A stretch of 64,000 nucleotides of DNA from an uncultured Candidatus Saccharibacteria bacterium (GTDB lineage Bacteria > Patescibacteriota > Minisyncoccia > Phycocordibacterales > UBA12088). A program made the position numbers and the translations under genes. The stretch is from contig CAZMLK010000002.1 in assembly GCA_964567265.1 (NCBI GenBank), positions 138,813-202,812 of the forward strand, written 5' to 3'. Shown here piece after piece: positions 4,754-52,642 of the stretch; the first letter of the stretch is position 1; each line of letters opens with the position of its first letter. The notes beneath the pieces are model-generated. The model was not told the origin of the DNA. It made no database searches and worked only from the letters and a program-made list of their open reading frames with translations.

Positions 4754-4983
4754 TGCATTTTTCTTAAAAAAGAATAAACCGTCGACCCAACCTGCACTCT
4801 TCTTGGCGGTGTGCCGGTACGGGGTGCCTTGAGGCAGTGCCCGACCCTAAAAGAATTATATAGTAGGCCATTTTTCACGCAATACATAGCCGTTTGCCGG
4901 GAAATTCATACTGCGCCTGTCAAATCGGAGCCGGCATAGCGGCGCTTGTGCCCCCTTTGACTCTCAAGGTATGCTTATTTCCT

Positions 4984-5541
4984 ATGAAACTTGGAATCTC
5001 AGGGGCAAAAGGCAGTTTTTCAGAGGAGGCGGCTGGTGAATACTGTAGAAAAGAAGGGATCGGGGACGCAGAGATCCAATACCTGGTGAGTGTCGAGAAT
5101 GTGCTCGAATCGGTAGAAAATGGCTCTATAGAGCTGGGAATTTTCCCTATCGAGAACTCGAACGGGGGCATCGTCATCGAAGCAGTCTACGCCATGGCCA
5201 AACACCGCTTCTCAGTCCTCAAGATGTTCGAGATCGACGTCCACCACATGCTCCTTGCGCTTCCGGGTACCAATCCCGACCAGATCACCCTCATTACTTC
5301 CCACGATCAGGCCTTGAAGCAGTGCCGGATGTACTTGAAACGGAAATGGCCGAGTGTGGATATCCAACCCTATCCGGACACCGCGAAGGCCGCAAAAGAC
5401 CTTTCCGAAGGAAATCTGCCGAAAACGGCCGCGGTCATCGCCCCCAAGTCTTGCGCTGCACTCTACAAACTCGACATTCTTGAAGAAAGCATCCAGGATC
5501 TCAAATTCAACTTCACGACGTTCGTCGCGGCGGCTAAATAG
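4984..5541 (+). CDS. Prephenate dehydratase-like protein (PDT domain only, no ACT domain)
   Basis: Start set at MKLGISGAKGSFSEEAA, typical PDT N-terminus; about 185 aa; ends before any regulatory ACT domain. Confidence 0.5.
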   Translation: MKLGISGAKGSFSEEAAGEYCRKEGIGDAEIQYLVSVENVLESVENGSIELGIFPIENSNGGIVIEAVYAMAKHRFSVLKMFEIDVHHMLLALPGTNPDQITLITSHDQALKQCRMYLKRKWPSVDIQPYPDTAKAAKDLSEGNLPKTAAVIAPKSCAALYKLDILEESIQDLKFNFTTFVAAAK

Positions 5542-5587
5542 TGTGTGTTTCTCATAAAAAAGTCGCGGGCGCCCAGGGCGCCCGCTT

Positions 5588-6037
5588 CTACTTTTTCGTC
5601 TTGTTGAACCTGAGAGTAGTTGGCGTCATTCTGCCTCTGACGTAGATGTCCATCTCTGCGTACTCTAAAACATGAGGGTCAGCGTTCGTCATATCCATGT
5701 GGATCGCGCACATGCGTGTGAATATCCCAGTCTCCTCGAGGTGTGTGATCACGATCACGTGGGGAAGTGGGAGCACCTTCTCTCGAAATAGGACTGTCGA
5801 TTCAGCCCAATTTGTGTCTATACGCCAGAGTTTGCGTATGTCCAACCCCCCAAAGACCCTGGAAACGATTTCGGCGGTCTCAATACCGCGACCCCATTCG
5901 GAGCAGATGATGACCGGATTTGTTTCGAGAAAGAATCGACGTGCGAATCGTGCTGAAAACAGTATCTCGTTCCTGCCGTATGGAGTGACCGCGTCATCCC
6001 AGTCCTGACCATGCCGCAGGATAGCAGCGATTTCCAT
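5588..6037 (-). CDS. Histidine phosphatase superfamily protein (SixA/PGAM-like)
   Basis: Start set at MEIAAILRHGQ (RHG catalytic motif); later VIVITHLE His; short, about 149 aa. Confidence 0.45.
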   Translation of the reverse strand: MEIAAILRHGQDWDDAVTPYGRNEILFSARFARRFFLETNPVIICSEWGRGIETAEIVSRVFGGLDIRKLWRIDTNWAESTVLFREKVLPLPHVIVITHLEETGIFTRMCAIHMDMTNADPHVLEYAEMDIYVRGRMTPTTLRFNKTKK

Positions 6038-9561: not shown

Positions 9562-10320
9562 ATGTACTACACCGTCCAACAACTTGCTACGCTCGCGAAT
9601 ATCAGCGTGCGCACGCTCCATCACTACGATGCGATCGGGCTTTTGCGGCCCTCGCGCGAGGAGAAGAACGGCTACCGCCGCTATGGGGAGGCAGAACTCC
9701 TTCGGCTCCAGCAGATACTCTTCTTCCGAGAGCTCGATTTTCCGCTTCCGGAGATAAAAGTAATCCTTGCTTCACCCACCTTCGACATGCGGGCAGCGCT
9801 CCGGGACCAGCGGAATCTCATCGAGATCAAGAGGAAACGTCTCACCGACCTCATGCAGACGATCGACGAGACGATTACCAGACTCAATACCAACAGCAAT
9901 ATGGACGACAAGAAACTCTATGACGGGTTCGATACCGGGGAGCAGGATCAATATGCGGACGAGGTGAAAGCGCGCTGGGGCAACACCGAAGCATACAAGC
10001 AGTCCAAGGAACGGACCAAGAACTGGACCAAGGCCGACTACGATCGGCTGAAGCAGGATGCTGACACCTGGATGAAAGCATTCGTGCTTGAGGTGCCGAA
10101 AGGCGCGAAGAGCCCGGAGGTGCAGAAGATGATCGCCGAGCATTACAACGCGCTCCGCAAATTCTACGAGCCGAACCTCAAGATGTACCGCGGCCTCGCC
10201 GACATGTACGTCGATGATCCGCGTTTCAGTGCCTACTATGAGAAGTACATGCCCGGGCTCGCGCTCTTCATGCAGGAGGCGATGCATTTCTACGCGGATA
10301 CTGAGGAGGCGAAGCAATAA
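9562..10320 (+). CDS. MerR family transcriptional regulator with TipAS-like C-terminal domain
   Basis: 252 aa; N-terminal HTH YTVQQLATLANISVRTLHHYDAIGLL; C-terminal antibiotic-recognition-like helical domain of TipA/Mta/SkgA type. Confidence 0.85.
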   Translation: MYYTVQQLATLANISVRTLHHYDAIGLLRPSREEKNGYRRYGEAELLRLQQILFFRELDFPLPEIKVILASPTFDMRAALRDQRNLIEIKRKRLTDLMQTIDETITRLNTNSNMDDKKLYDGFDTGEQDQYADEVKARWGNTEAYKQSKERTKNWTKADYDRLKQDADTWMKAFVLEVPKGAKSPEVQKMIAEHYNALRKFYEPNLKMYRGLADMYVDDPRFSAYYEKYMPGLALFMQEAMHFYADTEEAKQ

Positions 10321-10382
10321 GCCGAAGACCCCGGCAAAACAAAAAGCCCTTCAGGGCTTTTTGTTTTGCCGGGGTCTTCGGC
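10321..10382. terminator. 62-bp perfect palindrome acting as bidirectional terminator
   Basis: 29-nt arm GCCGAAGACCCCGGCAAAACAAAAAGCCC, loop TTCA, exact reverse-complement arm; fills whole gap between two convergent genes. Confidence 0.7.
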
Positions 10383-10774
10383 TACCGATAGTACGCCGCC
10401 TTCTCGTCTTCCGGCTCTTCGAGCGAGTTGTAGTCGATCAGGATTTCCTCGTCAGCCGCGATGTCGCGTGCAGCGAAATAGAGGAAGTCCGTATGGATCG
10501 CATTCGGCTCTTTCGAATGGTTCAGATACCAGCCGATCTGCATCTTGCCGAAATCCATCGGGCAGTGGAGCTCATTACCTTCGATGATGCAGTGCTGGAT
10601 GAATGATTCCGGGATATCGCTCCGCTTCAAGATGCGTACTTCCTCGCCCGCGTCGGCATGATCGCCGAAGAGTCGGAGCGGAGCGCCCTTTGCGATTGCA
10701 TGGGTCGCGAAGACGCCGACGCCGTGAGCGCCGGGCCTGAGGACGAATGAGAATTCAGTGGTCGTTGTTTCCAT
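10382..10774 (-). CDS. SET domain-containing protein (putative protein lysine methyltransferase)
   Basis: 130 aa; GVGVFATHAIAKGAPL, NHSKEPN (NHSxxPN), ARDIAADEEILIDY, hallmark SET motifs. Confidence 0.75.
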   Translation of the reverse strand: METTTTEFSFVLRPGAHGVGVFATHAIAKGAPLRLFGDHADAGEEVRILKRSDIPESFIQHCIIEGNELHCPMDFGKMQIGWYLNHSKEPNAIHTDFLYFAARDIAADEEILIDYNSLEEPEDEKAAYYR

Positions 10775-10843: not shown

Positions 10844-11410
10844 CTATCGAATCCCGCTGTCACACGAGATATGCGCCTCGGTCGCTTGTCCTGCGGTGAC
10901 GGTTATCATCACATCCATGCAACTCGGAAGCACTTCAGCAGCTATGGGGTGGAGCGTGTATGCGCCTGGGGCGAGCGATACCATGAACCTGCCGGACTTG
11001 TCGCTTTTCACGGTCCCTGCGAGTACCATCGACTCCTGCCGATATATCTCAATTGTGGTGGAGTACGGCCGCGGCGCGCAGCCTGGCTCCGGCGGCACCC
11101 TCTCGACAGGGCATGTCGGCGAGACATCGACAAGACCGGTCACATCGCCCTTGGCGACGGTGCTGCCGATGCGGCCGGTAGTGCCTGCGGAGGTGCCAGG
11201 GCACTCAGCAAAGCTGCAGTTCGGGCCCGTGCGTCCAACGGAGCTTCCATCGGGGCATATCTTCGCATCAGCATCGCAGACCTGGCCGCCGATTACGTCC
11301 GGTCCGGGTGCCATCGCGTGACGGACGCTCGCACCATAGAGGGCGAAGATGCCGACACAGAAGAGAAGGAGTCCCGATACGATGATGCCGAATAAATGCT
11401 TGTGGTTCAT
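10844..11410 (-). CDS. Membrane-anchored secreted protein with 4-Cys module and Ig/carboxypeptidase-regulatory-like C-terminal domain
   Basis: 188 aa; N-terminal TM; C-x6-C-x12-C-x4-C motif VCDADAKICPDGSSVGRTGPNCSFAECPG; C-terminal KSDKSGRFMVSLAPGAYTL beta-sandwich-like pattern. Confidence 0.6.
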   Translation of the reverse strand: MNHKHLFGIIVSGLLLFCVGIFALYGASVRHAMAPGPDVIGGQVCDADAKICPDGSSVGRTGPNCSFAECPGTSAGTTGRIGSTVAKGDVTGLVDVSPTCPVERVPPEPGCAPRPYSTTIEIYRQESMVLAGTVKSDKSGRFMVSLAPGAYTLHPIAAEVLPSCMDVMITVTAGQATEAHISCDSGIR

Positions 11411-11682
11411 TGGATTTCGATTGATCCTTCAACGGCGGCGCCAGCTCCCGGACACTCAGCAAAGCTGCAGTTCGGGCCCGTGCGGCTTACATAACTTCCA
11501 TCCGGGCACTGCTTCGCGTCCTGTGTACAGATCTGACCGCCCGTGAATTCCTCGGGACCATTTCCTATCCCGCGATTTACCTTTGCCGCATAGAGCGCGA
11601 GGACGCCGACCCCGAAGAGAAGGAGGCCGACCACGATCATGATAAAGAGTGAATGAGGCTTCATGCGGGTCATACGATTCAA
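11407..11682 (-). CDS. Small membrane-anchored protein with the same 4-Cys module
   Basis: 91 aa; TM then ICTQDAKQCPDGSYVSRTGPNCSFAECPG; 32-nt DNA identity with downstream paralog; 4-nt overlap with next gene. Confidence 0.55.
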   Translation of the reverse strand: MNRMTRMKPHSLFIMIVVGLLLFGVGVLALYAAKVNRGIGNGPEEFTGGQICTQDAKQCPDGSYVSRTGPNCSFAECPGAGAAVEGSIEIQ

Positions 11683-11684
11683 GA

Positions 11685-12074
11685 TTACGAAATAAGGGTA
11701 CTAAAATATCCCTGCGAGAAATATGCACCTGCGAGGCCGACAATGACCGCGACGACGAAGTACGCGAAACTCTTGAGAGTCCGGACCGACGACAGCTGCC
11801 TGACGACCATGCCCCCCAAGGGAGCAAGGATGATGTACGGGGCCGCCATTGTCGCGAATCCGTATGCCGCCATCTGTCCGCCATTATAGCCTGAGAGCTT
11901 GATAATTTCCCCGGCCAGCTTCGATCCATACTCGAGGACCTCCTTCGGGCCGAAGAAGAGCATGAGACCGGCAACGAATCCGAACGCGATATTGATAATG
12001 ATGCTGAGCAGGTTAGTTTCATCCGGAGACGCGAACGCATTCGGCATCATGGGGTTCATCTGGAACGGGTCCAT
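11685..12074 (-). CDS. Hypothetical integral membrane protein
   Basis: 129 aa with four hydrophobic segments; tightly packed upstream of the two 4-Cys genes (probable operon). Confidence 0.5.
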   Translation of the reverse strand: MDPFQMNPMMPNAFASPDETNLLSIIINIAFGFVAGLMLFFGPKEVLEYGSKLAGEIIKLSGYNGGQMAAYGFATMAAPYIILAPLGGMVVRQLSSVRTLKSFAYFVVAVIVGLAGAYFSQGYFSTLIS

Positions 12075-12645: not shown

Positions 12646-13326
12646 TCAGCTTCCAGTGCGGACGGTTCTCCCGCCATCGATCACTTGAAGTTGAGTGGAA
12701 CTATTCGGCGCGAGTAGTTGGTTATAGAGACTCTCCAGAGCCGCAATCGCCTTCGGGTAGGTGGGATACTCGCTCCAGCTCTTCCCGTCCCAGATCCACC
12801 ACGTACGTCTTTCCGAAATGGTGCTCGAGTTAAGCGGGAGCACTTGCACCCGGATCAATTCCTGCGCCCTCTGAAGAGGATCGCCGTTGCTGTTTCCGGG
12901 GTCCGGCACCTTGTAGGTGAGGGAGATACGGAACTCTTCACCTTGGAGCCACTGCCTGGTACTGCTCCGGCGGTCGAGTAGTGCGACGGGGATGCCGACG
13001 CACTTCAAGTGGATTGATGTCGAATGGGGGAAGTTGGCCTCCCATCGTTTCTCGACTCCCCTGGAGAAATCGACCAAGGCTTCCTCAAGAAGTACCGCGG
13101 TCCGTTTCGCCGCATATGATCGTTTGAAATACCCGAAGGTGTTTCGGAACATCCGGGCCCACTTGGGGTACGTGGCACTAGCGAGCGACATGCCAGCCAA
13201 TGTCCAGGTGTGCCAAGTAAAGCCACCTGACCAGGTCCACTTGGCGGTAGAGGCGAAGAGAAACCCAAGCAGGATTGAACCCATGATGTAGGCATTCTGC
13301 TCAACCCAGTCACGCAGAGCGTCCAT
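12646..13326 (-). CDS. Hypothetical 2-TM membrane protein (paralog of 8733-9392)
   Basis: 226 aa; two N-terminal helices and shared sequence blocks with 8733-9392. Confidence 0.45.
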   Translation of the reverse strand: MDALRDWVEQNAYIMGSILLGFLFASTAKWTWSGGFTWHTWTLAGMSLASATYPKWARMFRNTFGYFKRSYAAKRTAVLLEEALVDFSRGVEKRWEANFPHSTSIHLKCVGIPVALLDRRSSTRQWLQGEEFRISLTYKVPDPGNSNGDPLQRAQELIRVQVLPLNSSTISERRTWWIWDGKSWSEYPTYPKAIAALESLYNQLLAPNSSTQLQVIDGGRTVRTGS

Positions 13327-13422
13327 TCACATTCCTCCAGTCGGGCCGACCTCACCACGAGGTGGCGTCTGAATCTGTCAGGATTTTGACATATTCCTAA
13401 GAAATGTCAAATAGTCGGAGCT

Positions 13423-13950
13423 TTACGGCACGTAGATTTCCTCGATCTTCGTCACGATGTTCCCTTGGACCGTGAGGTGGTAGGGAAGGGTGTTCCAGTG
13501 GAGGGACTTGTCGTCGATGAGCTTGGCGAATGCCGCAATGTCGATCTCGTGCGGAGCGACACCCTTGGTCTCCATGTCCAAGGTCTGCATGATGACTTTC
13601 GCAGACGGGCTGGTCTCATAGAGAAGCGGGGTCGAGGTCGACGGGTTGTCGATGAAGTAGTCATTCGGGAGGCATTCATCGCGTGTTTCCTCGGTACAGA
13701 CGCCGGCCCGGATCGCCGCATCCTCGCCCGCCTTGCCCGAAAGCCACTCGGCTTCATCAAACGCGATCCGGACATCCTTCGAGGTATCAACGTAGCGGAT
13801 GAATCCGAGCGTCGTGGTCGCGCTCTCAGTGTCCTCAGGAGTCGGCACCTCAGCCTGCTGCTTGAGAGTGTTCGCATACCAAAACCCAGCTCCAGCGATG
13901 CAGAGGATGAAAAGCGAAGCAGATAGAAAAAAGCGTTTAGACATGTACAA
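13423..13950 (-). CDS. Hypothetical signal-anchored secreted protein
   Basis: 175 aa; N-terminal hydrophobic helix FFLSASLFILCIAGAGFW; no recognised domain. Confidence 0.5.
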   Translation of the reverse strand: MYMSKRFFLSASLFILCIAGAGFWYANTLKQQAEVPTPEDTESATTTLGFIRYVDTSKDVRIAFDEAEWLSGKAGEDAAIRAGVCTEETRDECLPNDYFIDNPSTSTPLLYETSPSAKVIMQTLDMETKGVAPHEIDIAAFAKLIDDKSLHWNTLPYHLTVQGNIVTKIEEIYVP

Positions 13951-13985
13951 AGTCTAAACGCTTTTCCAAAGACTGGCTATAGATT

Positions 13986-14624
13986 CTAATCAAGCAATTT
14001 GAAGCTTTTCCAGATCCGATCAAGATCTGCCATCGGAATTCCGCGTGTCGTTATGCGGTAAAAATATCCTTTCCAAATGAAAAGTGTTGTGCGCTCCTCA
14101 TCTTGCTCAGCCACGGTATGTACGGGATCTTTGGACATGTCGAACTTCCTCGTCAACGCAGGAACGCCAGAAACGGTCGTCTGCCCGATAAGATAATTTT
14201 CTTCATTGCCAACCCAGTGGTGGTATTCATCCGACAGTGATCCAGTCGCTGCTTGGGAGTTTACGGTAAGGATCCTCTCCTTCCCGGTCATATCATTTGC
14301 AATGAGCGCATAGGATGTATATTGATTCGGGTCGCCTTCGCCTACTAACATGCCGGAGGGGCGAAATTCCATATCGGAAGGCGCGTCAACGGAAAAGTGA
14401 AGAAAGTCATTTTTGTAGCGAACCCATTCACTAGAGAGCTGGGTGGATGACCCAGTGAATGATGTCGGAAGTTCATCTGCGCGTAATGTCCGACTTCCTT
14501 GCATACTCACACTCTGTGGAGCCTTACCAGAGTTCATTTTTGCAGCGAAATAAATAATACCCCCTGCGATAACGAGGGCCCCGAGAAAAATAAATGTAGC
14601 GACGCTGAGGTTTGATTTTTTCAT
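13986..14624 (-). CDS. Hypothetical signal-anchored secreted protein (AT-rich gene)
   Basis: 212 aa; N-terminal TM VATFIFLGALVIAGGIIYF; visibly lower GC than flanking genes. Confidence 0.5.
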   Translation of the reverse strand: MKKSNLSVATFIFLGALVIAGGIIYFAAKMNSGKAPQSVSMQGSRTLRADELPTSFTGSSTQLSSEWVRYKNDFLHFSVDAPSDMEFRPSGMLVGEGDPNQYTSYALIANDMTGKERILTVNSQAATGSLSDEYHHWVGNEENYLIGQTTVSGVPALTRKFDMSKDPVHTVAEQDEERTTLFIWKGYFYRITTRGIPMADLDRIWKSFKLLD

Positions 14625-14692
14625 GTGGATGCAATGATAGCAATAAGAAATTTTGGATTTAAAAAAAGTAGTTGCCCTATCTTACATGGAAC

Positions 14693-15553
14693 TTAATGCA
14701 ATTCGACATGTCCAAATGGTGATTTTTCCACTCTAACGCAAGGCAATGTCTGGGCAATTTCGTTGATCGTTTCCAATTGCGCTTGGCTCTTGGATGGGGG
14801 CCATGCTCCCTCAATCGACAATGCCCATTCACCCACATCCTCCAAAACATAAGTGTAAGTCACTATTTTTGCACCTCGTTTCTCGTGGATGATGATGGTT
14901 TGCGTCGTAACCTCTTTGATGGAGTCAACCAACTGCTGAACGACCTCACTGCGTGCATCTGGTGGAATTTCAAAAATAATGCTTGGCGCGTCAGCAGTTG
15001 TTGCTCGGTCGTAGTAGGAAGTCACTACTGCAATATTCCTTGAGTCAATTTTCTTACTGGTGATTGATTTCCAGATTGCAATAATTATTCCGTCTCGCAC
15101 TATTTCCCACATTGCTGAATCTATATCAGCTTGAATGTGAGCAATGGCCCAGTCTTTTATAGGAATGAGTATTGTTATGGCGTGGGAAGCGAAGTCCACC
15201 AGACCTATCATTTCTGCGCTCACCCCTCCTCCATATCCATGGGTATGCCAATTTAGCTCGTATTGATACTTCCCATCTATGTGTTCTTTGGCATGCTCAA
15301 CAGCCGCATCATCCACAATTGTCACCTCCAACCCCGTTTGTTTTGAGGTCAATTCAGAGACTAAGGGTGTAAGTAGGGAGTTCTCGATTTTTATGCGAAG
15401 TTTCAAGTCCCCGTTGCCAATAATGTTCTGGGCCGATTCTCTTGCCGCCTCAAGTTCTGCGTAATATTTTTGTGAAAAATCAAACACTCTAGCAGATTTT
15501 CGCTGTTCTAGGATACGGAGTAAAAAATTTTCGAGTTGTTCAAAAATTCGCAT
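14693..15553 (-). CDS. Hypothetical cytoplasmic protein (AT-rich gene)
   Basis: 286 aa, no TM, no motif recognised; visibly lower GC and weak GC3 bias. Confidence 0.5.
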   Translation of the reverse strand: MRIFEQLENFLLRILEQRKSARVFDFSQKYYAELEAARESAQNIIGNGDLKLRIKIENSLLTPLVSELTSKQTGLEVTIVDDAAVEHAKEHIDGKYQYELNWHTHGYGGGVSAEMIGLVDFASHAITILIPIKDWAIAHIQADIDSAMWEIVRDGIIIAIWKSITSKKIDSRNIAVVTSYYDRATTADAPSIIFEIPPDARSEVVQQLVDSIKEVTTQTIIIHEKRGAKIVTYTYVLEDVGEWALSIEGAWPPSKSQAQLETINEIAQTLPCVRVEKSPFGHVELH

Positions 15554-15594
15554 ATATTCGTAAACAGGCCTCCTTGCGGAAGCCTGTTTCTTTT

Positions 15595-16746
15595 CTACTC
15601 TTCTTTTTTGTCAGCTTTGCCTTCGAGGATTTCAAACACTTTCTCGTTACGCATGATGGTTTCGACGTACATGCGGACCGAGTCGGGGTTTGCTTCCTTG
15701 TAGTGCTCGAGGACGTGGTTCACGTCGCGGGCGACCTTGTCCTCAGGGAGGAGGATGGTCTCCTTCTCGCTGATCGCGTTCAGGATGAGCTGGAGCTTGG
15801 CGCGCTTCTCGGCTTCTGGCTCCCATTCCTTGCGGATGTCCTCAGGCGATTTGCCGAGGTGCTGGAAGTAGGTTTCCGGCTCGACGCCCATGCGCTCGAT
15901 CTCGGAGCGGAACTCGCCCATCATCTTGTCGAGCTCTGAGTCCTTGAGGATCTTCGGGAGGGCGATCGTTGCTTTCTCGACGAGCGCTTCGACGATGGCG
16001 AGGCGACGCTTCTCCTTTTCCTTCATTTCTTTCTCGGATTTGATGTTCTCACCAATCTTGGTGCGGAACTCGGCGACGGTGCCGAATGAGCCGAGCTTCT
16101 GGACGAACGCGTCGTCGAGCGCAGGAAGGTCCTCGTCCTTGATGTCGCTGCCGTCGTGCGCGCCGTGTTCGCCGGCTTCGTGACCTTCTTCGTCCTCATG
16201 CGCGTGATGCTGCTCGTAGTGCGCCATGCGGCGGCGGATGGCGAGAATGGCCTCATCCACTTCTGCTTCGGTTGGGTCGGCGACCGTGCTCTCCATCTTC
16301 TTCACGATCTTCTCGGAGATTGCCTTGTAGTCGGGGAGCTCGAAGGTCGGGACGACCGCCGTTTTCGCGACGAAGGAGACGGGGTTGCCGCGCGCGAGCT
16401 TGGTGATCGAGATATGCGGCCGGCCGATCACATCGAGCTCGTTGTCGATGATGATCGCGGGATACACGTCGGCGAGCGCTCGCTCGGCCATTTCTTCCAT
16501 GATCGCCATCTCGCCCACCTGCTTCACGAGCACCTCCTCAGGAACATGTCCTTTGCGGAAGCCGTCGATCTCTACCCGCTCGCTGACATACTTCACGGCC
16601 GCCTTCCGGTAGCTGTTGATGACTTCGACCGGGATATCGCCGCGGATTTCAAGCTCTGACTGCTCGAGCTTGATGATCTCGAGGTTGGTATATGGCTGAT
16701 TTCCTGGCTTCTTTACTTCGTTTGTTTCCTCGTGTGAGTCTTGCAT
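15595..16746 (-). CDS. tig: Trigger factor lacking the FKBP/PPIase domain
   Basis: 383 aa; ribosome-binding signature GFRKGHVP; C-terminal TF arm region; PPIase position occupied by about 30 aa His/Glu-rich linker HYEQHHAHEDEEGHEAGEHGAHDG. Confidence 0.8.
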   Translation of the reverse strand: MQDSHEETNEVKKPGNQPYTNLEIIKLEQSELEIRGDIPVEVINSYRKAAVKYVSERVEIDGFRKGHVPEEVLVKQVGEMAIMEEMAERALADVYPAIIIDNELDVIGRPHISITKLARGNPVSFVAKTAVVPTFELPDYKAISEKIVKKMESTVADPTEAEVDEAILAIRRRMAHYEQHHAHEDEEGHEAGEHGAHDGSDIKDEDLPALDDAFVQKLGSFGTVAEFRTKIGENIKSEKEMKEKEKRRLAIVEALVEKATIALPKILKDSELDKMMGEFRSEIERMGVEPETYFQHLGKSPEDIRKEWEPEAEKRAKLQLILNAISEKETILLPEDKVARDVNHVLEHYKEANPDSVRMYVETIMRNEKVFEILEGKADKKEE

Positions 16747-16828
16747 AGGCCCGACTATAGCAGAAAAACCACGCGCCCGTCCATGTGTGGACGGGCGCGT
16801 GGTTTTCGTCTATTTCAGGTCGTGGACA

Positions 16829-17269
16829 CTAGTTCCCGGACGTAGTATTGACTCCCTGCATGTCGCCATCGAGCGATTCGACATTGGTTGCGTTCAAGTC
16901 TGCTTCGATCGATGAGGTCTCGTCTGACGAGCTCTGCGTTTGAAGGGCTTTCACTGCCGGATCCTCTGAAGCGCCATTGCTGGTGCTGGTCGGCGGCGTC
17001 TGCGCCTTCTGATCTGGGACCGCACTGTTCTGCTCGTCGGAGAGCATCTGCTGGTTGAGGCGCATGCCCCAATAGTAGAGGCCTCCGATCGCGACCAGTG
17101 CGACGATGATGATCGCGCCGATCATCTGGCCGACGCTCGAGGAACCTTTCGGTGCCTCTGGAGGGGCGGCAGGCGGGACCATCATGTTCGGCACGCTGGT
17201 CGCCGGGGCAGGGGTTGGCGCTGCGGGAGCCGGAGCTACTCCTGGGGCGGAAGGCGTTTGTTCGTCCAT
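16829..17269 (-). CDS. Hypothetical single-pass membrane protein, Pro/Ala-rich N-terminus
   Basis: 146 aa; central TM MIGAIIIVALVAIGGLYYW; low-complexity flanks. Confidence 0.45.
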   Translation of the reverse strand: MDEQTPSAPGVAPAPAAPTPAPATSVPNMMVPPAAPPEAPKGSSSVGQMIGAIIIVALVAIGGLYYWGMRLNQQMLSDEQNSAVPDQKAQTPPTSTSNGASEDPAVKALQTQSSSDETSSIEADLNATNVESLDGDMQGVNTTSGN

Positions 17270-17295: not shown

Positions 17296-18285
17296 CTATT
17301 CACCGGCATGCTCACCCTCATTGCTCTCCCTAGTCGTCGTCGCGGTCGGAGCTTTTTTCTTCGGTTCGAACGTTTTGAGGAGTCGGACGGCAGCTTCGAG
17401 CTCGCTCTGCGCTGTCTTCAGGTTCCCCTTGATGCTCTCGACAAGGTCGCGCACCTTCGAGAACTCGCCTTCAGGATCATCGGATGCAATCACGGTGGCG
17501 AAAGTCGTCTTGATGTTCCCGATGCTCGACTGTGCTGCCGCAAGCGCTGCGCGGGCAGTGATGACATGGGACTTCGCTTCCCCGACATCCTTGCCGTCGG
17601 CTTCAAGCTTCGCGATCCGTGAATCGATACGGTCTGCGATCTTGAGGAGGCGGCCGTACGCGACATCGAGGCGCGCGGCGACATGGCTCACTTCATCGGC
17701 AACCTTCGCCTTTATGCGCTCCCTTGTCGACGACGCGATCTTCTGCCACATCTCCTGGCGCTTCTCGCGAAGCTCATCGAGCGGTCCGCCGTTCCCCTTC
17801 ATCTGGCCAGGGAATACTGCTGGCCGCGTGCCGGTCGCCATGCCCGGCTTGGTCGTTGAGGCCATGCGCATGCGCATCTCCTTCTCGCGCATTTCCATCA
17901 TATTTGAAGCCGTCGTTGATGCTTGGATCTTCTTCAACATCTCTGGGGTCGGCTTCTGGAGCGGACGATTCGTCGTTGACCCTTCTGATCCCCTTGCCGG
18001 CGGCATCGGAGGCGGGGGTACGTCGCCCTCAACATGGTCTCCGCCAGTCCGTGCTCCCGTCGGAGGCTTCGCGGTGGCCGCTCCCGGACACTTCGCGAAT
18101 TCGCAGTGCGGGCCGGTGCGTCCGACGGCGCTGCCGTCTGGACACATCTTCGCTTCCGCGGTACAGATTACGCCGGCACTCGCGTCGGCGTCCGCCGTCT
18201 CGTCAGCAAGCGCGAACGATACGCCGAACAAAAAAACAAATCCAATGGACAGGAAAGTACTGCCCAGTACGCGCATTCTCGTCAT
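17296..18285 (-). CDS. Secreted protein with 4-Cys module and C-terminal coiled coil
   Basis: 329 aa; signal/anchor; ICTAEAKMCPDGSAVGRTGPHCEFAKCPG (third copy of the module); helical C-terminal half. Confidence 0.55.
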   Translation of the reverse strand: MTRMRVLGSTFLSIGFVFLFGVSFALADETADADASAGVICTAEAKMCPDGSAVGRTGPHCEFAKCPGAATAKPPTGARTGGDHVEGDVPPPPMPPARGSEGSTTNRPLQKPTPEMLKKIQASTTASNMMEMREKEMRMRMASTTKPGMATGTRPAVFPGQMKGNGGPLDELREKRQEMWQKIASSTRERIKAKVADEVSHVAARLDVAYGRLLKIADRIDSRIAKLEADGKDVGEAKSHVITARAALAAAQSSIGNIKTTFATVIASDDPEGEFSKVRDLVESIKGNLKTAQSELEAAVRLLKTFEPKKKAPTATTTRESNEGEHAGE

Positions 18286-47426: not shown

Positions 47427-48131
47427 ATGTCAGAAGGATTCCACGAGGCGAGTGCAGAAAAATCACCCAAGGAGGCATTTACAGAAAAATTCCTTGATCA
47501 GCCTTACGGGAACCTGACAGAAGAACAGCAGGCGATGCTTCGTACGCATGTTGAGGGGCGGGAGGGTCCATGGACAACGGTGCCGAACATATTCGATGTA
47601 ACTTGGGATGATGAAGCGAAACGGATTGTCATCGAGCTGTCTGAGGGAGGAAGCCAAACGTTTATATACGACCCCTTCGTGCCGAAGGTGCCACAAGCTG
47701 CACCACCTGTAGAATCAAGAGGAGACTCCGAGCCGAGTGGCGCAGTAAAAGTCGGGGAAGAACCCGTCTCAGTTGTGACTCAGAGCAACGAGGCGTTGCG
47801 CACCGTGATCCCTGGCGGGGAATGGATCGATTTGTCTGGGAAAAAGATCGTAACCGATCAGGCTGGCTTGTATTCAGGCAAAGAACTGGTCATGAAAACG
47901 GGTGCCGCGAACACGATGAATTTTGTCGGCAAATATAATTTCCACGAGGGAACGATGATCGTTGGAGGGCCCGATGGCTCACTGCACGCGGCTCCGTACT
48001 CGGCAGAGAGAGAGGAGGCGCTCAAAAGCGCAGGGTACAAGCAAGAGTTCGAGCTGGTGCCGAGTTTAACAGGTCATCAAAGGTTCGAAGACGAGGAGAC
48101 CCAGAGGGTATTTGAAGCGCTAAAAAACTAG
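47427..48131 (+). CDS. Hypothetical protein (cassette 1 of rpsJ-rplC island)
   Basis: 234 aa, acidic, no TM, no motif; flanked by repeat copies 1 and 2. Confidence 0.45.
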   Translation: MSEGFHEASAEKSPKEAFTEKFLDQPYGNLTEEQQAMLRTHVEGREGPWTTVPNIFDVTWDDEAKRIVIELSEGGSQTFIYDPFVPKVPQAAPPVESRGDSEPSGAVKVGEEPVSVVTQSNEALRTVIPGGEWIDLSGKKIVTDQAGLYSGKELVMKTGAANTMNFVGKYNFHEGTMIVGGPDGSLHAAPYSAEREEALKSAGYKQEFELVPSLTGHQRFEDEETQRVFEALKN

Positions 48132-48191
48132 CTTCACTCTTCCTAGAAGTCAGGCGCTTCACGTGCGGGTGTTCTGTGTCACGGTACCGGA

Positions 48192-48272
48192 ATCGACGTC
48201 AAGATGGTCTAGGCGAAGGAGTCAAACAAAGAATCCCCCCAAGATAATTTCTCTAGGGGATTTTTTGTTTTT
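48192..48272 (+). repeat. rpsJ 3' end plus terminator, repeat copy 2
   Basis: ATCGACGTCAAGATGGTCTAGGCGAAGGAGTCAAACAAAGAATCCCC...GGGGATTTTTTGTTTTTT; by eye 4 substitutions and one 1-nt indel over 48 nt versus copy 1. Confidence 0.85.
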
Positions 48273-48401
48273 TAAGAAAATAGAGATTCCGCAGAAAGGG
48301 AGGATCGGATCAAATAGAGACATTGACAAATCTATTATATGTGGTATATAATACCGCCAGATAAAGTCCTTCAATCATCGCGCTTCGGACGGAGAAAACC
48401 C

Positions 48402-48866
48402 ATGCGCCTTTCCTTGATTCTGGCCTTCGTACTCGGTCTCCAGAGCGGTTTTGTCGGCAATTCTGCTCACGCAGAGATTGCGACACCCGCCGATCTGCCC
48501 GCAGACTATGCTACCTGGCAAACGTTGCATGAACTCTCTTGTGAACCGCTGTCGATCAAAGTGTATTCGACAATCACGCCGGATGCCGAGATGGAGCTTC
48601 TGACCTACACCCTCGGCAAGAATCTGGTCGCGTACTCGATGTCATCATCCACAAATGCTGGCAAGGTAATCACCGACCATGGCCTCTACAAAGGGGAATG
48701 GAAATCGGTCGATGGCACCGATGCCAATAAGGAGAAATCGGAGCGTCTCGTGAATGCCGCCCTTCTCGATAACGGTGGACAGCCTGCTCTCGTTGCGTTC
48801 GGCCAGTGTAAGCAGGAGCTTGTGCGTAAAATCATAAAGGCTTTCTTTGCACCACTTGGCAGGTAA
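48402..48866 (+). CDS. Hypothetical secreted protein (cassette 2)
   Basis: Start at MRLSLILAFVLGLQSGFVGNSAHA (signal peptide, AHA-E cleavage site likely); own terminator CCCCCAGTCCA-CGC-ATGGACTGGGGG plus T-run. Confidence 0.5.
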   Translation: MRLSLILAFVLGLQSGFVGNSAHAEIATPADLPADYATWQTLHELSCEPLSIKVYSTITPDAEMELLTYTLGKNLVAYSMSSSTNAGKVITDHGLYKGEWKSVDGTDANKEKSERLVNAALLDNGGQPALVAFGQCKQELVRKIIKAFFAPLGR

Positions 48867-48951
48867 AACGGAGCCCATTGCATCAGTGTGTGTTCCTCGC
48901 CGTTGATACCCGCCCCCAGTCCACGCATGGACTGGGGGCTTCATTTTTTTG

Positions 48952-48969
48952 CCTCATGGGGATTTTTTG
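48952..48969 (+). repeat. Partial third copy of the rpsJ terminator right half
   Basis: CCTCATGGGGATTTTTTG versus CCTCACGGGGATTTTTTG at 47365-47382 (17 of 18). Confidence 0.6.
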
Positions 48970-49155
48970 ATTTTTGTTGAAAATAGAAAAAGCCGAAATG
49001 CGCTGTTTCGGCTTTCTTCCTCGTGCATGAGGGTCACGGGTTCGGTGGTTAGTATAGTCTGCCACGAACAGGCATTGGTACAGCTTCTCATTGGACGTAG
49101 CGTTGCTAAAGCAAAAGAAAATCGCTGCGGGCCCGATGGTCCGCAGCGACATCCG

Positions 49156-49767
49156 TCATGCGCTCTGAGGGAATGAGGGCGTCAGAGTGGTGCGACGTCC
49201 CCAGAGATACATACAGAGGAGGATAAGTCCCGAAACGACGAGCAGGATCCCGCCAATTGCAGGGATGAGCCATGCTTGGCGCGTTCCGTCCGAATAGAAA
49301 TCGAACGTGAGATTTTCTCGGTCAACGCGCACTTTCCCCACGTAGGTGAAAAAAGTGTAGTCAGGAAGTGGCACTGCCGCGCTGATGTAGGTCGATAGGC
49401 CGTTCTCCAGCCTGACCAATGCGGTATATTCGACCACCCCATGGAGACCTTTGCCGTCCATGCTCCCGTCGTCCCGCCACCCATTCTGGATTACCACGAA
49501 TGTTGGAACGCTATTCCCCGTTCGTTGCTGAAAATCCTGCATTGGCAATTCTGCCGAAGGCGTACCGTTCTCGAAGGAAAGCACGCTGAGGGTCGTTGAA
49601 TTGTTCGGCTTCCACAACTCGACGTGTATCGGATCAGGCATAGGACTTGCAGTCCATCCAATCAGCATCCATGCACCGAGGGCAAAAATGCCCAGAGGCC
49701 ATCGATAGGTTTTCCACGCACATTTCAGTATCTTTCGAAACGGCTTTCTCTTCGAATTACCAGTCAT
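49156..49767 (-). CDS. Hypothetical membrane protein with N- and C-terminal TM helices (cassette 3)
   Basis: ORF 49156-49803; start tentatively at MTGNSKRK; TM1 WPLGIFALGAWMLIGW, TM2 LIPAIGGILLVVSGLILLCMYLW. Confidence 0.45.
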   Translation of the reverse strand: MTGNSKRKPFRKILKCAWKTYRWPLGIFALGAWMLIGWTASPMPDPIHVELWKPNNSTTLSVLSFENGTPSAELPMQDFQQRTGNSVPTFVVIQNGWRDDGSMDGKGLHGVVEYTALVRLENGLSTYISAAVPLPDYTFFTYVGKVRVDRENLTFDFYSDGTRQAWLIPAIGGILLVVSGLILLCMYLWGRRTTLTPSFPQSA

Positions 49768-49915
49768 CTTCCATGCTCCATGGATAGAGTGAACCCACGC
49801 CACCGTACCATCCGATCTTCAAAATGTAAATAAATATCTTCGCCCTCTGTGCGTAGACCGAGGGCTCCGTCGTTCCATGGTTCCTGAAAGCCGTTTGGTG
49901 CTATGCTACGGAGTC

Positions 49916-50377
49916 ATGAAGCAGAAGCTGAAAGCGCTATTCAAGTTCGCCTCCCCGGCCATCCTGCTGGTATTCCGGACGTACTACTTCATCTTCCGCC
50001 CGAAGGGGGAGAGCGTGAAGTGCGTGATCCGGAACGGTGGCAACATCCTCCTCATCCGCAATTCGTACGGCGCGAAGTTCTGGACGCTTCCCGGTGGCGG
50101 CGTGAAGTCGAGCGAGACCCTGGAACAGGCGGCCGTCCGCGAAGCACATGAGGAAGTCGGCATCGAGATCCGCGAGCAGGACCTCACCAAGCACGGCAAG
50201 GTGCGCTACCTCCTCGACTTCCGCCGCTCCACGGTCTGGGTGTTCAGCGTCACGGTGCCGTCTCCCGCATTCCACCTTCATGGCGTCGAGATCGAGGAAG
50301 CGAAGTGGTTTCCCGAGAACGCAATCCCCGGCATGCGCTCGCATCTCCTGGAACGTTTCCTCGATTTGGCGAAATAA
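49916..50377 (+). CDS. NUDIX hydrolase (cassette 4)
   Basis: Start at MKQKLKAL (TGcTATGCT ends 8 nt upstream); Nudix box GGGVKSSETLEQAAVREAHEEVGI. Confidence 0.8.
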   Translation: MKQKLKALFKFASPAILLVFRTYYFIFRPKGESVKCVIRNGGNILLIRNSYGAKFWTLPGGGVKSSETLEQAAVREAHEEVGIEIREQDLTKHGKVRYLLDFRRSTVWVFSVTVPSPAFHLHGVEIEEAKWFPENAIPGMRSHLLERFLDLAK

Positions 50378-50433
50378 CCGACCGATTTTAGAGTCGGTAT
50401 TGACTATGAAATTAAATTCGTCATGCTGGCACA

Positions 50434-51069
50434 ATGACTAGGTCCACAGAGGAATCACTTGAAATCATCTCAAACCAATTTGTCGTGAAGCGTCGGTTTA
50501 CCACGGGTACATTCAACCTTATATTGGGTGCGGTACTAGGCGCCACTTTGACTTTTTTAGTAGGAGCTATTAATTCTTACATCTCCAACCAAACCTTACG
50601 TCAAGCGGTTGCAAAGAGCATCTACATTGAAATTGAGCATAATAAAATTTTTTTAAATAGCTCTGTATCTGATTTAAACAGCGCAGTTTTAGATTGGAAA
50701 GGCAACAAAGGAAATAAATTAAATATGCAAGTATTCGCCCTGCATAGAGAAGACTTCTACCAAATTTATCTCCAAGATTTAACTCTATTAGATAAAAACA
50801 CTCTAGATGAAACCTACGAATTTTACGGAAGACTTAGGACCATTGATTACCTAACAAAATTAATCACTGATGATTTTGATCTCTATTACAGAAATGAAAA
50901 TCTAATTTCTAGAGCTGATATCTTGTCCCGACTAATGGAATTACAGCAGGATGTGGATGAGGCGCTTCGGAATGCTGACAAAATCCAAAGAGATTTAATT
51001 ACTAAATATGATGTTAACAGTGTTCAGAGTTCCTGTAATCCAACCAATTGTCTAACAAACTCTTGGTAA
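50434..51069 (+). CDS. Hypothetical single-TM protein, strongly AT-rich gene (cassette 5)
   Basis: 211 aa; TM FNLILGAVLGATLTFLVGAI then Asn/Leu/Asp-rich helical region; composition clearly unlike flanking genes. Confidence 0.45.
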   Translation: MTRSTEESLEIISNQFVVKRRFTTGTFNLILGAVLGATLTFLVGAINSYISNQTLRQAVAKSIYIEIEHNKIFLNSSVSDLNSAVLDWKGNKGNKLNMQVFALHREDFYQIYLQDLTLLDKNTLDETYEFYGRLRTIDYLTKLITDDFDLYYRNENLISRADILSRLMELQQDVDEALRNADKIQRDLITKYDVNSVQSSCNPTNCLTNSW

Positions 51070-51075
51070 AGAGAG

Positions 51076-51104
51076 TTGCATCCTTTCAGACCTTCCTGTA
51101 TAGT
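51076..51104 (+). promoter_or_regulatory. Candidate rplC operon promoter
   Basis: TTGCAT, 17-nt spacer, TATAGT. Confidence 0.45.
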
Positions 51105-51110
51105 CCATTT

Positions 51111-51249
51111 ACTCTCGTTCTGAGAGATTCTATGTCCCAATAGGGACCAATGGACTGAAATCCGCAAGGGATTCGTCCTTGGCGGTATTTTTAATACCAA
51201 AAACGATCAAAAGACGGTAGAAATCTTCAAAAAACCTATAAAACTCAAC
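51111..51249 (+). promoter_or_regulatory. Structured 5' leader of rplC-rplD-rplW-rplB (possible r-protein autoregulatory leader)
   Basis: Four consecutive hairpins: CTCTC/GAGAG, GTCCC-AATA-GGGAC, AATCC-GCAA(G)-GGATT, GGTATT-TTTA-ATACC. Confidence 0.3.
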
Positions 51250-51861
51250 GTGAAATTCATCCTCGGCACAAAAGAAGAAATGACGCAGGTCTTCGATGAG
51301 AAGGGCGTCGTCCACGCAGGAACCATCCTCAATGCAGGTCCTTTGACCGTCACCAAGGTCCTCACCAAGGACTCTGACGGATATGAGGCAGTCCAGGTCG
51401 GATACGGCGTCCGCAAGGAAAAGCATGCATCGAAGCCAGTCATGGGCCAGACCAAGGCGTTCGGTATCTTCCGGACCCTCAAGGAGTTCCGCGATGTCGA
51501 GGGCATGACCGCAGGCGACAAGATCGATGTCTCGGTCTTTGCCCCAGGCGACACCATCCAGGTCTCAGCGATCTCGAAGGGTAAGGGCTTCCAGGGCGTC
51601 GTGAAGCGTCATGGTTTCCATGGCGGTCCGCGTTCGCACGGCCAGAAGCACTCCGAGCGCTCCCCGGGTTCTATCGGCGGCGGCGCGCGTGCCGGAGGCC
51701 GTGTCGCGAAGGGCATGAAAATGGGTGGCCGCATGGGTACTGACCGCGTCACGGTCAAGAATCTCAAGGTGCTCGTTGTCGATGCTGCCGCGAACACCAT
51801 CATCGTGTCAGGAGCCGTTCCGGGTCGTCGCGGAACGCTCGTTGAAGTAGTTTCAAAATAA
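51250..51861 (+). CDS. rplC: 50S ribosomal protein L3
   Basis: 203 aa; GTG start; KGKGFQGVVKRHGFHGGPRSHG. Confidence 0.96.
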   Translation: MKFILGTKEEMTQVFDEKGVVHAGTILNAGPLTVTKVLTKDSDGYEAVQVGYGVRKEKHASKPVMGQTKAFGIFRTLKEFRDVEGMTAGDKIDVSVFAPGDTIQVSAISKGKGFQGVVKRHGFHGGPRSHGQKHSERSPGSIGGGARAGGRVAKGMKMGGRMGTDRVTVKNLKVLVVDAAANTIIVSGAVPGRRGTLVEVVSK

Positions 51862-51865
51862 AATC

Positions 51866-52642
51866 ATGGAAGCGACAATTTACAGCATGGACGGAAAGAA
51901 GACGGGCGCTCTCACGCTCCCGGAGAGCCTCTTCGCGCTTCCGTGGAACGCAGACCTCGTGCACCAGGTGACCGTCTCTGAGGCGGCAAACCTCCGCACG
52001 CCGGTTGCAGACACCAAGGGACGCGGCGAAGTACGCGGCGGCGGCAAGAAGCCGTGGCAGCAGAAGGGTACGGGCCGCGCACGCGCAGGTTCCCGTCGTT
52101 CACCAATCTGGAAGGGAGGTGGTGTTTCTCATGGTCCAAAGGCTGAGAAGGTCTTCGCACAGAAGATCAACAAGAAGATGAAGTCGAAGGCGCTCTTCAC
52201 CGTCCTCTCGAAGAAGTTCAAGGATGGCGAGGTTCTCTTCGTCGACCAGCTTTCATTCTCAGCACCAAAGGCGAAGCTCGCCAAGGAGACGCTGTTTGCA
52301 CTCGCAAAGGTCTCTGGTTTCGAGAAGCTCGCAACCAAGCGGAAGAATGCAGCACTCATCGGCCTCGGTACGCATGATTTGAATGCAAAGAAGAGCTTCC
52401 GCAACTTCGGCAATGTCGAACTCGGCGAGATCCGCAACTGGACCGCGTCTGACCTCCTCAAGTACAAGTTCCTCATCGTCGGGACTCCGGACGCGTCGAT
52501 CGCGCTCCTCCAGTCACGTGCAGAGGGTGGTGCCGCACCGGCAGCAGCTGTGGTTGCACCGAAGAAGTACGCTCCGAAGAAGGTTGCGGCAAAGAAGCCG
52601 GCAGCCAAGAAAGCGGTAAAGCCTGCAAAGGCCGCAAAATAA
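51866..52642 (+). CDS. rplD: 50S ribosomal protein L4 with Ala/Lys/Pro-rich C-terminal tail
   Basis: 258 aa; GGGKKPWQQKGTGRARAGS; tail AAPAAAVVAPKKYAPKKVAAKKPAAKKAVKPAKAAK. Confidence 0.96.
   Translation: MEATIYSMDGKKTGALTLPESLFALPWNADLVHQVTVSEAANLRTPVADTKGRGEVRGGGKKPWQQKGTGRARAGSRRSPIWKGGGVSHGPKAEKVFAQKINKKMKSKALFTVLSKKFKDGEVLFVDQLSFSAPKAKLAKETLFALAKVSGFEKLATKRKNAALIGLGTHDLNAKKSFRNFGNVELGEIRNWTASDLLKYKFLIVGTPDASIALLQSRAEGGAAPAAAVVAPKKYAPKKVAAKKPAAKKAVKPAKAAK

Follow-up and report, generated by a model that had tools for sequence, protein, structure and literature searches.

Three exported proteins of a Saccharibacteria bacterium share a widespread four-cysteine mini-domain, probably a disulfide-stapled β-hairpin close to the membrane

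A 64,000-nucleotide stretch of contig CAZMLK010000002.1 from an uncultured Candidatus Saccharibacteria bacterium (hereafter the window) contains three genes, designated A, B and C, whose products share a short module with four cysteines. On balance, we consider that A, B and C each carry one copy of a widespread, uncurated extracytoplasmic mini-domain, which folds as a disulfide-stapled β-hairpin and probably serves as a pedestal or knob. The parts of this reading differ in strength. The structural identity of the module and its nature as an exported, disulfide-bonded domain can be proposed with good confidence, and the pedestal or building-block role, taken on its own, falls somewhat short of an even chance.

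Gene A (10844–11410, minus strand) encodes a protein of 188 residues that is sequentially composed of an N-terminal transmembrane (TM) anchor, the four-cysteine module, and a C-terminal β-sandwich resembling the transthyretin and CarboxypepD_reg folds. The TM anchor (11324–11392, minus strand) spans approximately residues 7–29, as judged from a hydropathy scan and the sequence, and the basic N terminus in front of it implies a predicted N-in, C-out orientation. The module (11201–11278, minus strand) contains Cys45, Cys52, Cys65, and Cys70 and reads CDADAKICPDGSSVGRTGPNCSFAEC. The β-sandwich-like domain (10847–11128, minus strand) contains two more cysteine pairs, Cys100/Cys111 and Cys164/Cys183, which are also kept in the proteins P0122 and P0126. 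Protein A itself gives a weak match to CarboxypepD_reg (PF13620, E = 0.0045) in a Pfam-A scan. Orthologues of A, 170–190 residues in length, are found in Kaiserbacteria and other Patescibacteria, and several of them contain PF13620. The nearest named orthologues support a placement of the source genome in Patescibacteria, with a likeness to Kaiserbacteria.

Gene B (11407–11673 or 11407–11682, minus strand) encodes a stand-alone form, in which the TM anchor is followed by the module (11452–11529, minus strand; CTQDAKQCPDGSYVSRTGPNCSFAEC) and by nothing else. The product has 91 residues if translated from TTG 11682 and 88 residues if translated from ATG 11673. The ATG is the likelier start, as a gene call made independently on a nearly identical metagenome contig begins there. 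The stop codon of B and the start codon of A overlap in the tetranucleotide ATGA, which suggests that the two genes may be translationally coupled. Since A and B can be aligned through their TM helices as well, they are tandem paralogues, with 65% nucleotide identity over 243 aligned nucleotides. A run of 32 identical nucleotides between them, first noticed in an earlier interpretation of the letters alone (the sequence-only reading), is borne out and corresponds to the 11 most conserved codons of the module (RTGPNCSFAEC).

Gene C (17296–18285, minus strand) encodes a protein of 329 residues with a signal peptide, the module (18088–18165, minus strand; CTAEAKMCPDGSAVGRTGPHCEFAKC), a Pro/Gly-rich linker, and a long helical region resembling a coiled coil. 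The helix-prone, heptad-periodic region (17350–17790, minus strand) covers residues ~166–312. It displays a hydrophobic periodicity of ~3.5 residues (p = 0.007) and gives weak matches to long-helix proteins in an NCBIfam scan. All three proteins begin with a basic N terminus followed by a hydrophobic segment. This segment resembles a signal anchor in A and B, but in C it looks like a cleavable signal peptide, with a putative cleavage site between FALA and DE and no obvious permanent anchor. The sequence-only reading had described all three proteins as membrane-anchored, with a β-sandwich, nothing, and a coiled coil downstream of the module. A permanent anchor is likely in A and B and less obvious in C. 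As for the downstream parts, the empty tail of B stands, the β-sandwich of A is weakly supported by its PF13620 match, and a coiled coil in C is compatible with the periodicity rather than proven by it.

The boundaries of the three open reading frames (ORFs) and of their motifs were given exactly in that reading, and the spacing C-x6-C-x12-C-x4-C is present in each protein. The modules of A, B, and C are 57–70% identical over ~40 residues. When all six frames of the window are scanned, with strict as well as loose patterns, no copy beyond these three appears. Across 750 unique instances collected from homologues, the consensus is x-x-A-C-T-x-[ED]-A-K-x-C-P-D-G-S-x-V-G-R-T-G-P-N-C-E-F-A-x-C-P. 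The four cysteines are invariant (100%), as are the spacings C-x6-C and C-x4-C (100%). Conservation extends well beyond the cysteines: position 7 is acidic in 100% of the instances, and D13 (94%), G14 (98%), S/T15 (96%), V17 (96%), R19 (99%), F26 (98%), and P30 (91%) are nearly fixed. The module is a mini-domain of ~30 residues with a 26-residue core.

A profile built from the three copies retrieves 164 proteins. All of them are 33–74 residues long and annotated as "hypothetical", and their named sources are mostly metagenome-assembled genomes (MAGs) of Patescibacteria. The exact cysteine spacing is kept in 117 of the 120 best matches, and stand-alone homologues of 50–75 residues number more than 100. 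An exhaustive search of 1.84 billion cluster representatives with a trimmed profile of 31 positions recovers 9,349 of them at E ≤ 1e-3, 5,918 at E ≤ 1e-10, and 145 at E ≤ 1e-30. Because thousands of homologues keep the motif and the window copies are so similar to one another, the motif is not a chance pattern. The module had been assigned to three proteins and to their N termini. It belongs instead to a very large family and behaves as a mobile repeat, which can lie anywhere in a protein and occurs in up to 11 tandem copies.

The family is broadly distributed. The module is present in all major lineages of Patescibacteria. A strict peptide pattern, run on the GTDB species representatives, gives at least 587 sites that were confirmed, of which the best 80 loci were analysed. 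Patescibacteria are represented in these 80 loci by Paceibacteria, Saccharibacteria, Microgenomates, SR1, Andersen-, Magasanik-, Uhr-, Doudna-, and Komeili-bacteria, and Myxococcota by Nannocystis exedens DSM 71, Polyangiaceae, and Nannocystaceae. MAGs of Gamma- and Alphaproteobacteria, one Bacillota MAG, and one MAG labelled "archaeon" are also present. In Nannocystis exedens DSM 71 (NZ_NETK01000001.1, locus L067, ~4950–5939), two single-module lipoprotein genes with Pro-rich tails lie next to each other. Cluster look-ups add a Nanoarchaeota protein that combines TIG with modules (P0264, MEK6946090.1) and a protein of the foraminiferan Rosalina sp. (P0289). The diatom Seminavis robusta has three proteins with 5–10 copies each (CAB9523274.1, CAB9514042.1, and CAB9509094.1; P0245/P0246/P0248). 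In two of the Seminavis gene models the genomic span exceeds the coding length, so the genes contain introns and contamination is unlikely. The occurrence of the module in a DPANN archaeon, a foraminiferan, and a diatom suggests inter-domain transfer. The module is not a phage module, since only one locus, with 75% identity, was found in 2.9 million viral contigs (L086, IMGVR_UViG_3300037755_000275, 61.6 kb).

The module is absent from the domain libraries searched. None of the 24,736 models of Pfam-A (E ≤ 1) matches over the module in A, B, or C, and P0241, which contains 10 module copies, matches no family at all. The Pfam-A matches in 145 multi-copy proteins all belong to named families of other domains, none of which is a four-cysteine module. 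NCBIfam 20.0 (June 2026) likewise gives no match over the module, either in the single-copy proteins A, B, and C or in proteins with 3–10 copies. Profile searches of the PDB sequences return only chance CPDGS strings in an antibody complementarity-determining region and in manganese peroxidase, and two fold searches return no match. The literature contains no description of the module that we could find, only the general context of cysteine-rich proteins in the Candidate Phyla Radiation (CPR). The view that this is not a named domain is hence upheld for the libraries searched, as is the conservation of the cysteines among homologues, on which that reading also depended. The module represents a very large, uncurated family that crosses the domains of life.

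Several known families were considered and rejected. PF27023 ("6BHPP") has a precomputed match graded "faint" on proteins with at least three modules, such as P0159. This match is absent from single-module proteins and from many multi-module proteins, so PF27023 is probably not a dedicated model of the module; no literature on "6BHPP" was found. A precomputed annotation with accessions up to PF27300 leaves many multi-module proteins without any Pfam match, and a later Pfam release therefore probably also lacks a dedicated model. E. coli YdcA (PF27300), a periplasmic protein of 57 residues, is small and exported like many module proteins and shares the string C-T-x3-K-x(1-2)-C-x-D-G-S. Precomputed YdcA matches, again graded "faint", occur on five-module proteins. 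However, YdcA has the spacing C-x9-C-x7-C-x11-C, has no counterpart of R19, F26, or the final C-x4-C, and scores 6.7 bits over positions 3–16, so that the first half alone aligns. A relationship between the module and YdcA is not supported by this comparison.

Pacifastin (PF05375) has six cysteines in the pattern C-x(9-12)-C-N-x-C-x-C-x(2-3)-G-x(3-6)-C-T-x3-C, as opposed to four in the module. The weak Pacifastin_I matches in P0157 and its relatives fall on a separate N-terminal domain (residues ~80–116). The six-cysteine Kunitz/BPTI (PF00014) and Kazal (PF00050) families give strong matches on adjoining segments, for example residues 145–196 of P0157, and never on the module. Zinc-ribbon and rubredoxin folds are disfavored because the module contains no pair of CxxC (CPxCG) knuckles and has no Pfam zinc-ribbon match. 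The Myxococcus cysteine-rich repeat (TIGR02232/PF13948) gives no hidden Markov model (HMM) match in A, B, C, or the multi-copy proteins.

The module is positioned close to the membrane. The gap between the hydrophobic segment and the first cysteine is 15 residues in A, 16 in B, and 12 in C. At loci from other genomes, a hydrophobic segment precedes the module by at most 80 residues in 76 of 86 module ORFs, and in these the median gap is 12.5 residues (interquartile range 9–17). The membrane-proximal placement proposed for the window proteins is thus seen elsewhere as well. Downstream of the module, the median tail length is 121 residues, and a quarter of the tails are no longer than 26 residues, corresponding to stand-alone proteins like B. 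The upstream export signals are TM segments, lipoboxes, or signal sequences, with lipoprotein signals in the Myxococcota versions. Judging from these signals and from the positive-inside N termini, the module is exported in every context examined. The earlier perception of a genuine conserved module in exported proteins is confirmed.

The fusion partners of the module are diverse. They include CarboxypepD_reg (as in A), Hint, PG_binding_1, PKD, TIG, Gmad2, META, SIMPL, DUF333, and Ricin_B. A second group consists of inhibitor-type domains, namely Kunitz, Kazal, pacifastin-like, and, once, antistasin domains, in at least three distinct architectures. P0157, P0164, and P0211 combine a pacifastin-like domain, a Kunitz domain, and modules; P0378 contains three Kunitz domains and seven modules; and P0273 combines DUF5667, Kazal, Hint, and modules. 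Pacifastin is usually considered an arthropod family. The bacterial-looking lipoproteins P0157, P0164, P0211, P0208, P0132, P0141, and P0250 display an N-terminal pacifastin cysteine signature, C-N-x-C-x-C-x3-G-x2-C-T-x3-C, with Pfam E values of 2e-5 to 6e-3 that fall short of the cutoff, and some of them also contain a strong Kunitz domain.

No gene partner of the module is conserved. A protein with three or four TM segments is encoded directly upstream of B in the same orientation (11685–12074, minus strand; 11 nucleotides from the start of B) and had been put forward as a possible partner. Homologues of the window neighbours, including this protein, are absent within 5 kb on either side of the module in the 80 loci. 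Small multi-TM genes account for 2 of 64 upstream neighbours, which is no enrichment. De novo clustering of the neighbours in the 80 loci reveals no recurrent family, the most frequent being an ABC ATPase in 10 of 80. The linkage to the multi-TM gene is local to the source genome. Tandem module paralogues are fairly common, with two or three module genes in 8 of 77 loci.

The fold of the module was predicted with AlphaFold2 (AF2) in two independent runs, based on alignments of 80–101 sequences. The models contain a β-hairpin with a turn at P-D-G-S and a short third strand at E-F, and the predicted local distance difference test (pLDDT) score of the core is ~75–80. In the models, A8, I/L10, V17, and F26, together with the side chain of R19, would lie on one face and constitute a mini-core, and the DG pair would form the turn. 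Two disulfides are predicted from the four invariant cysteines. The 750 instances provide no information on the pairing by correlated cysteine loss, because none of them lacks a cysteine.

Several observations together make two disulfides much likelier than a metal site. The four invariant cysteines are not arranged in CxxC knuckles. The module is found in one polypeptide with Kunitz and Kazal domains, which depend on disulfides, and is also present in secreted proteins of eukaryotes, encoded by the intron-containing diatom genes. The two additional conserved cysteine pairs in the ectodomain of A point in the same direction. Many exported cysteine-rich proteins and a disulfide-forming protein have been documented in CPR genomes (PMC4736985). 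The sequence-only reading had left the choice between disulfide and metal stabilization; the context favors the former and disfavors the latter.

These data can be combined into a model of the module as a membrane-proximal building block. The proteins would be exported by a Sec-type route, and the N-terminal helix would then stay in the membrane, or the lipobox or signal sequence would be processed. The 26-residue core would fold with strand 1 ending at the second cysteine, the P-D-G-S turn, and strand 2 formed by x-V-G-R-T; the short third strand (E-F) would pack on top of the hairpin. Two disulfides among the four invariant cysteines would lock this fold, which would be supported by the mini-core of A8, I/L10, V17, and F26 and by the invariant R19. 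In Patescibacteria, the domain sits ~12 residues from the membrane, where it would most likely form a pedestal or an interaction knob that is compact and resists proteases. It carries varied ectodomains such as the β-sandwich of A and the putative coiled coil of C, or nothing, as in B. In other organisms, the module is strung into tandem arrays. A generic, autonomous building block fits the diversity of fusion partners and the lack of a conserved neighbor. A pedestal fits the ~12-residue distance from the membrane, the varied downstream parts, and the absence of an operon partner.

Other observations weigh against this model. The pLDDT score of the predicted fold is moderate. E/D7, K9, D13, S/T15, and R19 are nearly invariant across the domains of life, which hints at a ligand or partner. 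In small disulfide domains that serve purely as spacers, little besides the cysteines is usually conserved. Stand-alone proteins like B hold nothing up, which means that their module must itself be functional. Protease-inhibitor domains occur in about one-third of the multi-copy proteins that have any Pfam partner. No Dsb- or VKOR-like thiol-disulfide oxidoreductase with a CxxC motif is encoded in the 64-kb window, a result that is uninformative for the genome as a whole.

A pedestal or neutral spacer does not explain the inhibitor fusions, the polar invariance, or the stand-alone forms, and this leaves room for a knob with a binding function or for an inhibitor head. In a broader proposal, which we advance tentatively and regard as somewhat unlikely, the modules are unrecognized mini protease inhibitors or conserved-ligand knobs that are displayed on the membranes of CPR bacteria and DPANN archaea and, after horizontal transfer, became multi-headed secreted proteins in myxobacteria, diatoms, and foraminifera. 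If this proposal were true, few surface modules without an assigned function would be as abundant in episymbiotic microbes as this one.

The inhibitor half of that proposal is unlikely when considered by itself. It pictures the module as a small protease-inhibitor head of the canonical type, with V-G-R-T-G-P as the reactive loop and R19 as the P1 residue for trypsin-like enzymes, displayed on the surface of CPR cells and assembled into multi-headed inhibitors elsewhere. Its appeal lies in the company that the module keeps, as it is joined in single polypeptides to inhibitors of four or five unrelated families, in no fewer than three distinct architectures. The domain is also small and cysteine-rich, R19 is 99% invariant, and R-T-G-P loosely resembles the K/R-S-x-P sequence at P1-P1'-P2'-P3' of Bowman-Birk loops. 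A membrane-anchored stand-alone form would make sense as a surface shield. However, canonical reactive loops are typically hypervariable, above all at P1, and the putative loop is among the most conserved parts of the module. AF2 moreover places R19 inside strand 2, most of the fusion partners are unrelated to proteolysis, and no inhibitor family is matched in sequence or fold.

The ligand-binding half is more doubtful still. According to it, the module is not a passive support but a knob for a ligand or partner, candidate ligands being an envelope glycan, peptidoglycan, a component of the host surface, or a cation such as Ca2+ bound by the acidic and serine residues, with the disulfides as only a scaffold. 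The exceptional conservation of polar residues other than cysteine, from CPR bacteria to diatoms, would be accounted for in this way, as would the abundance of stand-alone anchored copies. Arrangement in tandem is characteristic of modules that bind by avidity, and the module is fused with PG_binding_1, Ricin_B, PKD, and TIG. A role in attachment has been proposed for cysteine-rich surface proteins of CPR bacteria (PMC4736985). On the other hand, the module does not resemble known carbohydrate- or metal-binding modules, and its conserved residues can be explained structurally by the DG turn, the mini-core, and stacking of the arginine on the phenylalanine. Nor is a ligand common to CPR bacteria, DPANN archaea, myxobacteria, and diatoms obvious.

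It is very improbable that the four cysteines are reduced and coordinate Zn, Fe, or Cu, or constitute a redox-active center at the membrane surface. The concentration of four invariant cysteines in ~26 residues is compatible with such a site, which the sequence-only reading had raised, and the anaerobic life of many CPR bacteria could allow thiols to remain reduced after export. The C-x6-C and C-x4-C spacings do not correspond to CxxC-type knuckles, though, and no rubredoxin or zinc-ribbon model of Pfam is matched. The module is also found alongside Kunitz and Kazal domains, whose disulfide bonds are obligatory, and in secretory proteins of eukaryotes. Scarcely credible, and rejected, is the notion that the small genes encode precursors of antimicrobial peptides or of ribosomally synthesized and post-translationally modified peptides (SCIFF-like): their products are short (50–75 residues) with a conserved, cysteine-rich core at the C terminus, in many cases ending precisely at ...CPGE, but the 80 loci contain no conserved maturase or other neighbor family, the N terminus consists of a true TM, lipobox, or signal sequence, and the module also occurs inside large multidomain and eukaryotic proteins.

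Several known systems come closest to the module. Like EGF-like and other cysteine-stabilized hairpin modules of 30–40 residues, it has ~30 residues, invariant cysteines, a β-hairpin core, and an exported location, and it is threaded as tandem beads with Pro-rich linkers and combined freely with other extracellular domains. It differs from EGF-like modules in having four rather than six cysteines, spaced in a way of their own (C-x6-C-x12-C-x4-C), and a mostly prokaryotic distribution. It lacks an HMM or fold match, and its conservation outside the cysteines is far higher than is usual. Kunitz (PF00014), Kazal (PF00050/PF07648), pacifastin (PF05375), and antistasin (PF02822) domains are likewise small, cysteine-rich, and exported, and occur in the same polypeptides, but they share no sequence similarity with the module, have other numbers and patterns of cysteines, and differ from it in the conservation of the putative loop. 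The cysteine-rich proteins of Peribacteria and the Myxococcus repeat (TIGR02232/PF13948) share its context of exported cysteine-rich proteins in CPR bacteria and myxobacteria. Those proteins are large (~1,655 residues on average) and contain a different repeat; roles in rigidity or attachment have been proposed for them (PMC4736985). The module does not introduce a new principle of biology but adds a new family to the familiar class of small extracellular modules stabilized by cysteines.

A large part of microbial diversity belongs to Patescibacteria and DPANN archaea, which live attached to other cells and whose surface proteins are mostly unannotated. The module is often the sole recognizable element of a small membrane protein. 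Its definition would provide a handle on thousands of "hypothetical" proteins and a marker of exported, membrane-proximal regions. Its near-invariance from CPR bacteria to diatoms implies strong constraint, and its repeated fusion to inhibitor domains offers a concrete biochemical hypothesis that is cheaply testable. Experiments are feasible in the cultured Nannocystis exedens DSM 71 and in the genome-sequenced diatom.

The surroundings of the three genes contain further features. Directly downstream of A, a SET-domain protein of 130 residues is encoded (10382–10774, minus strand; PF00856, E = 1.1e-9). Between B/A and C lie five consecutive minus-strand genes without a Pfam match (12646–13326, 13423–13950, 13986–14624, 14693–15553, and 16829–17269), interrupted solely by the trigger factor gene (15595–16746). 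At least three of the five products contain a TM-like hydrophobic segment, and the unannotated cluster at 12646–17269 probably encodes surface proteins. One of them, the anchored protein at 13423–13950 (minus strand), contains the two-cysteine string GVCTEETRDECLPNDYF, which loosely resembles the first half of the module (C-T-x-E...C-x-P-N-D) with a different spacing. Upstream of the locus, a regulator that reads as MerR-type is encoded at 9562–10320 (plus strand). A homologue with 48% identity (L060:1901–2635) lies 2.3 kb upstream of a module gene on a 1.41-Mb contig labelled Vitreimonas sp.; this recurrence may be a coincidence, or the label may be doubtful. The GC content of the window is 0.47 at 14001–16000 and 0.50–0.52 at 48001–52000, compared with ~0.57 elsewhere, and these low-GC stretches may be islands of different origin.

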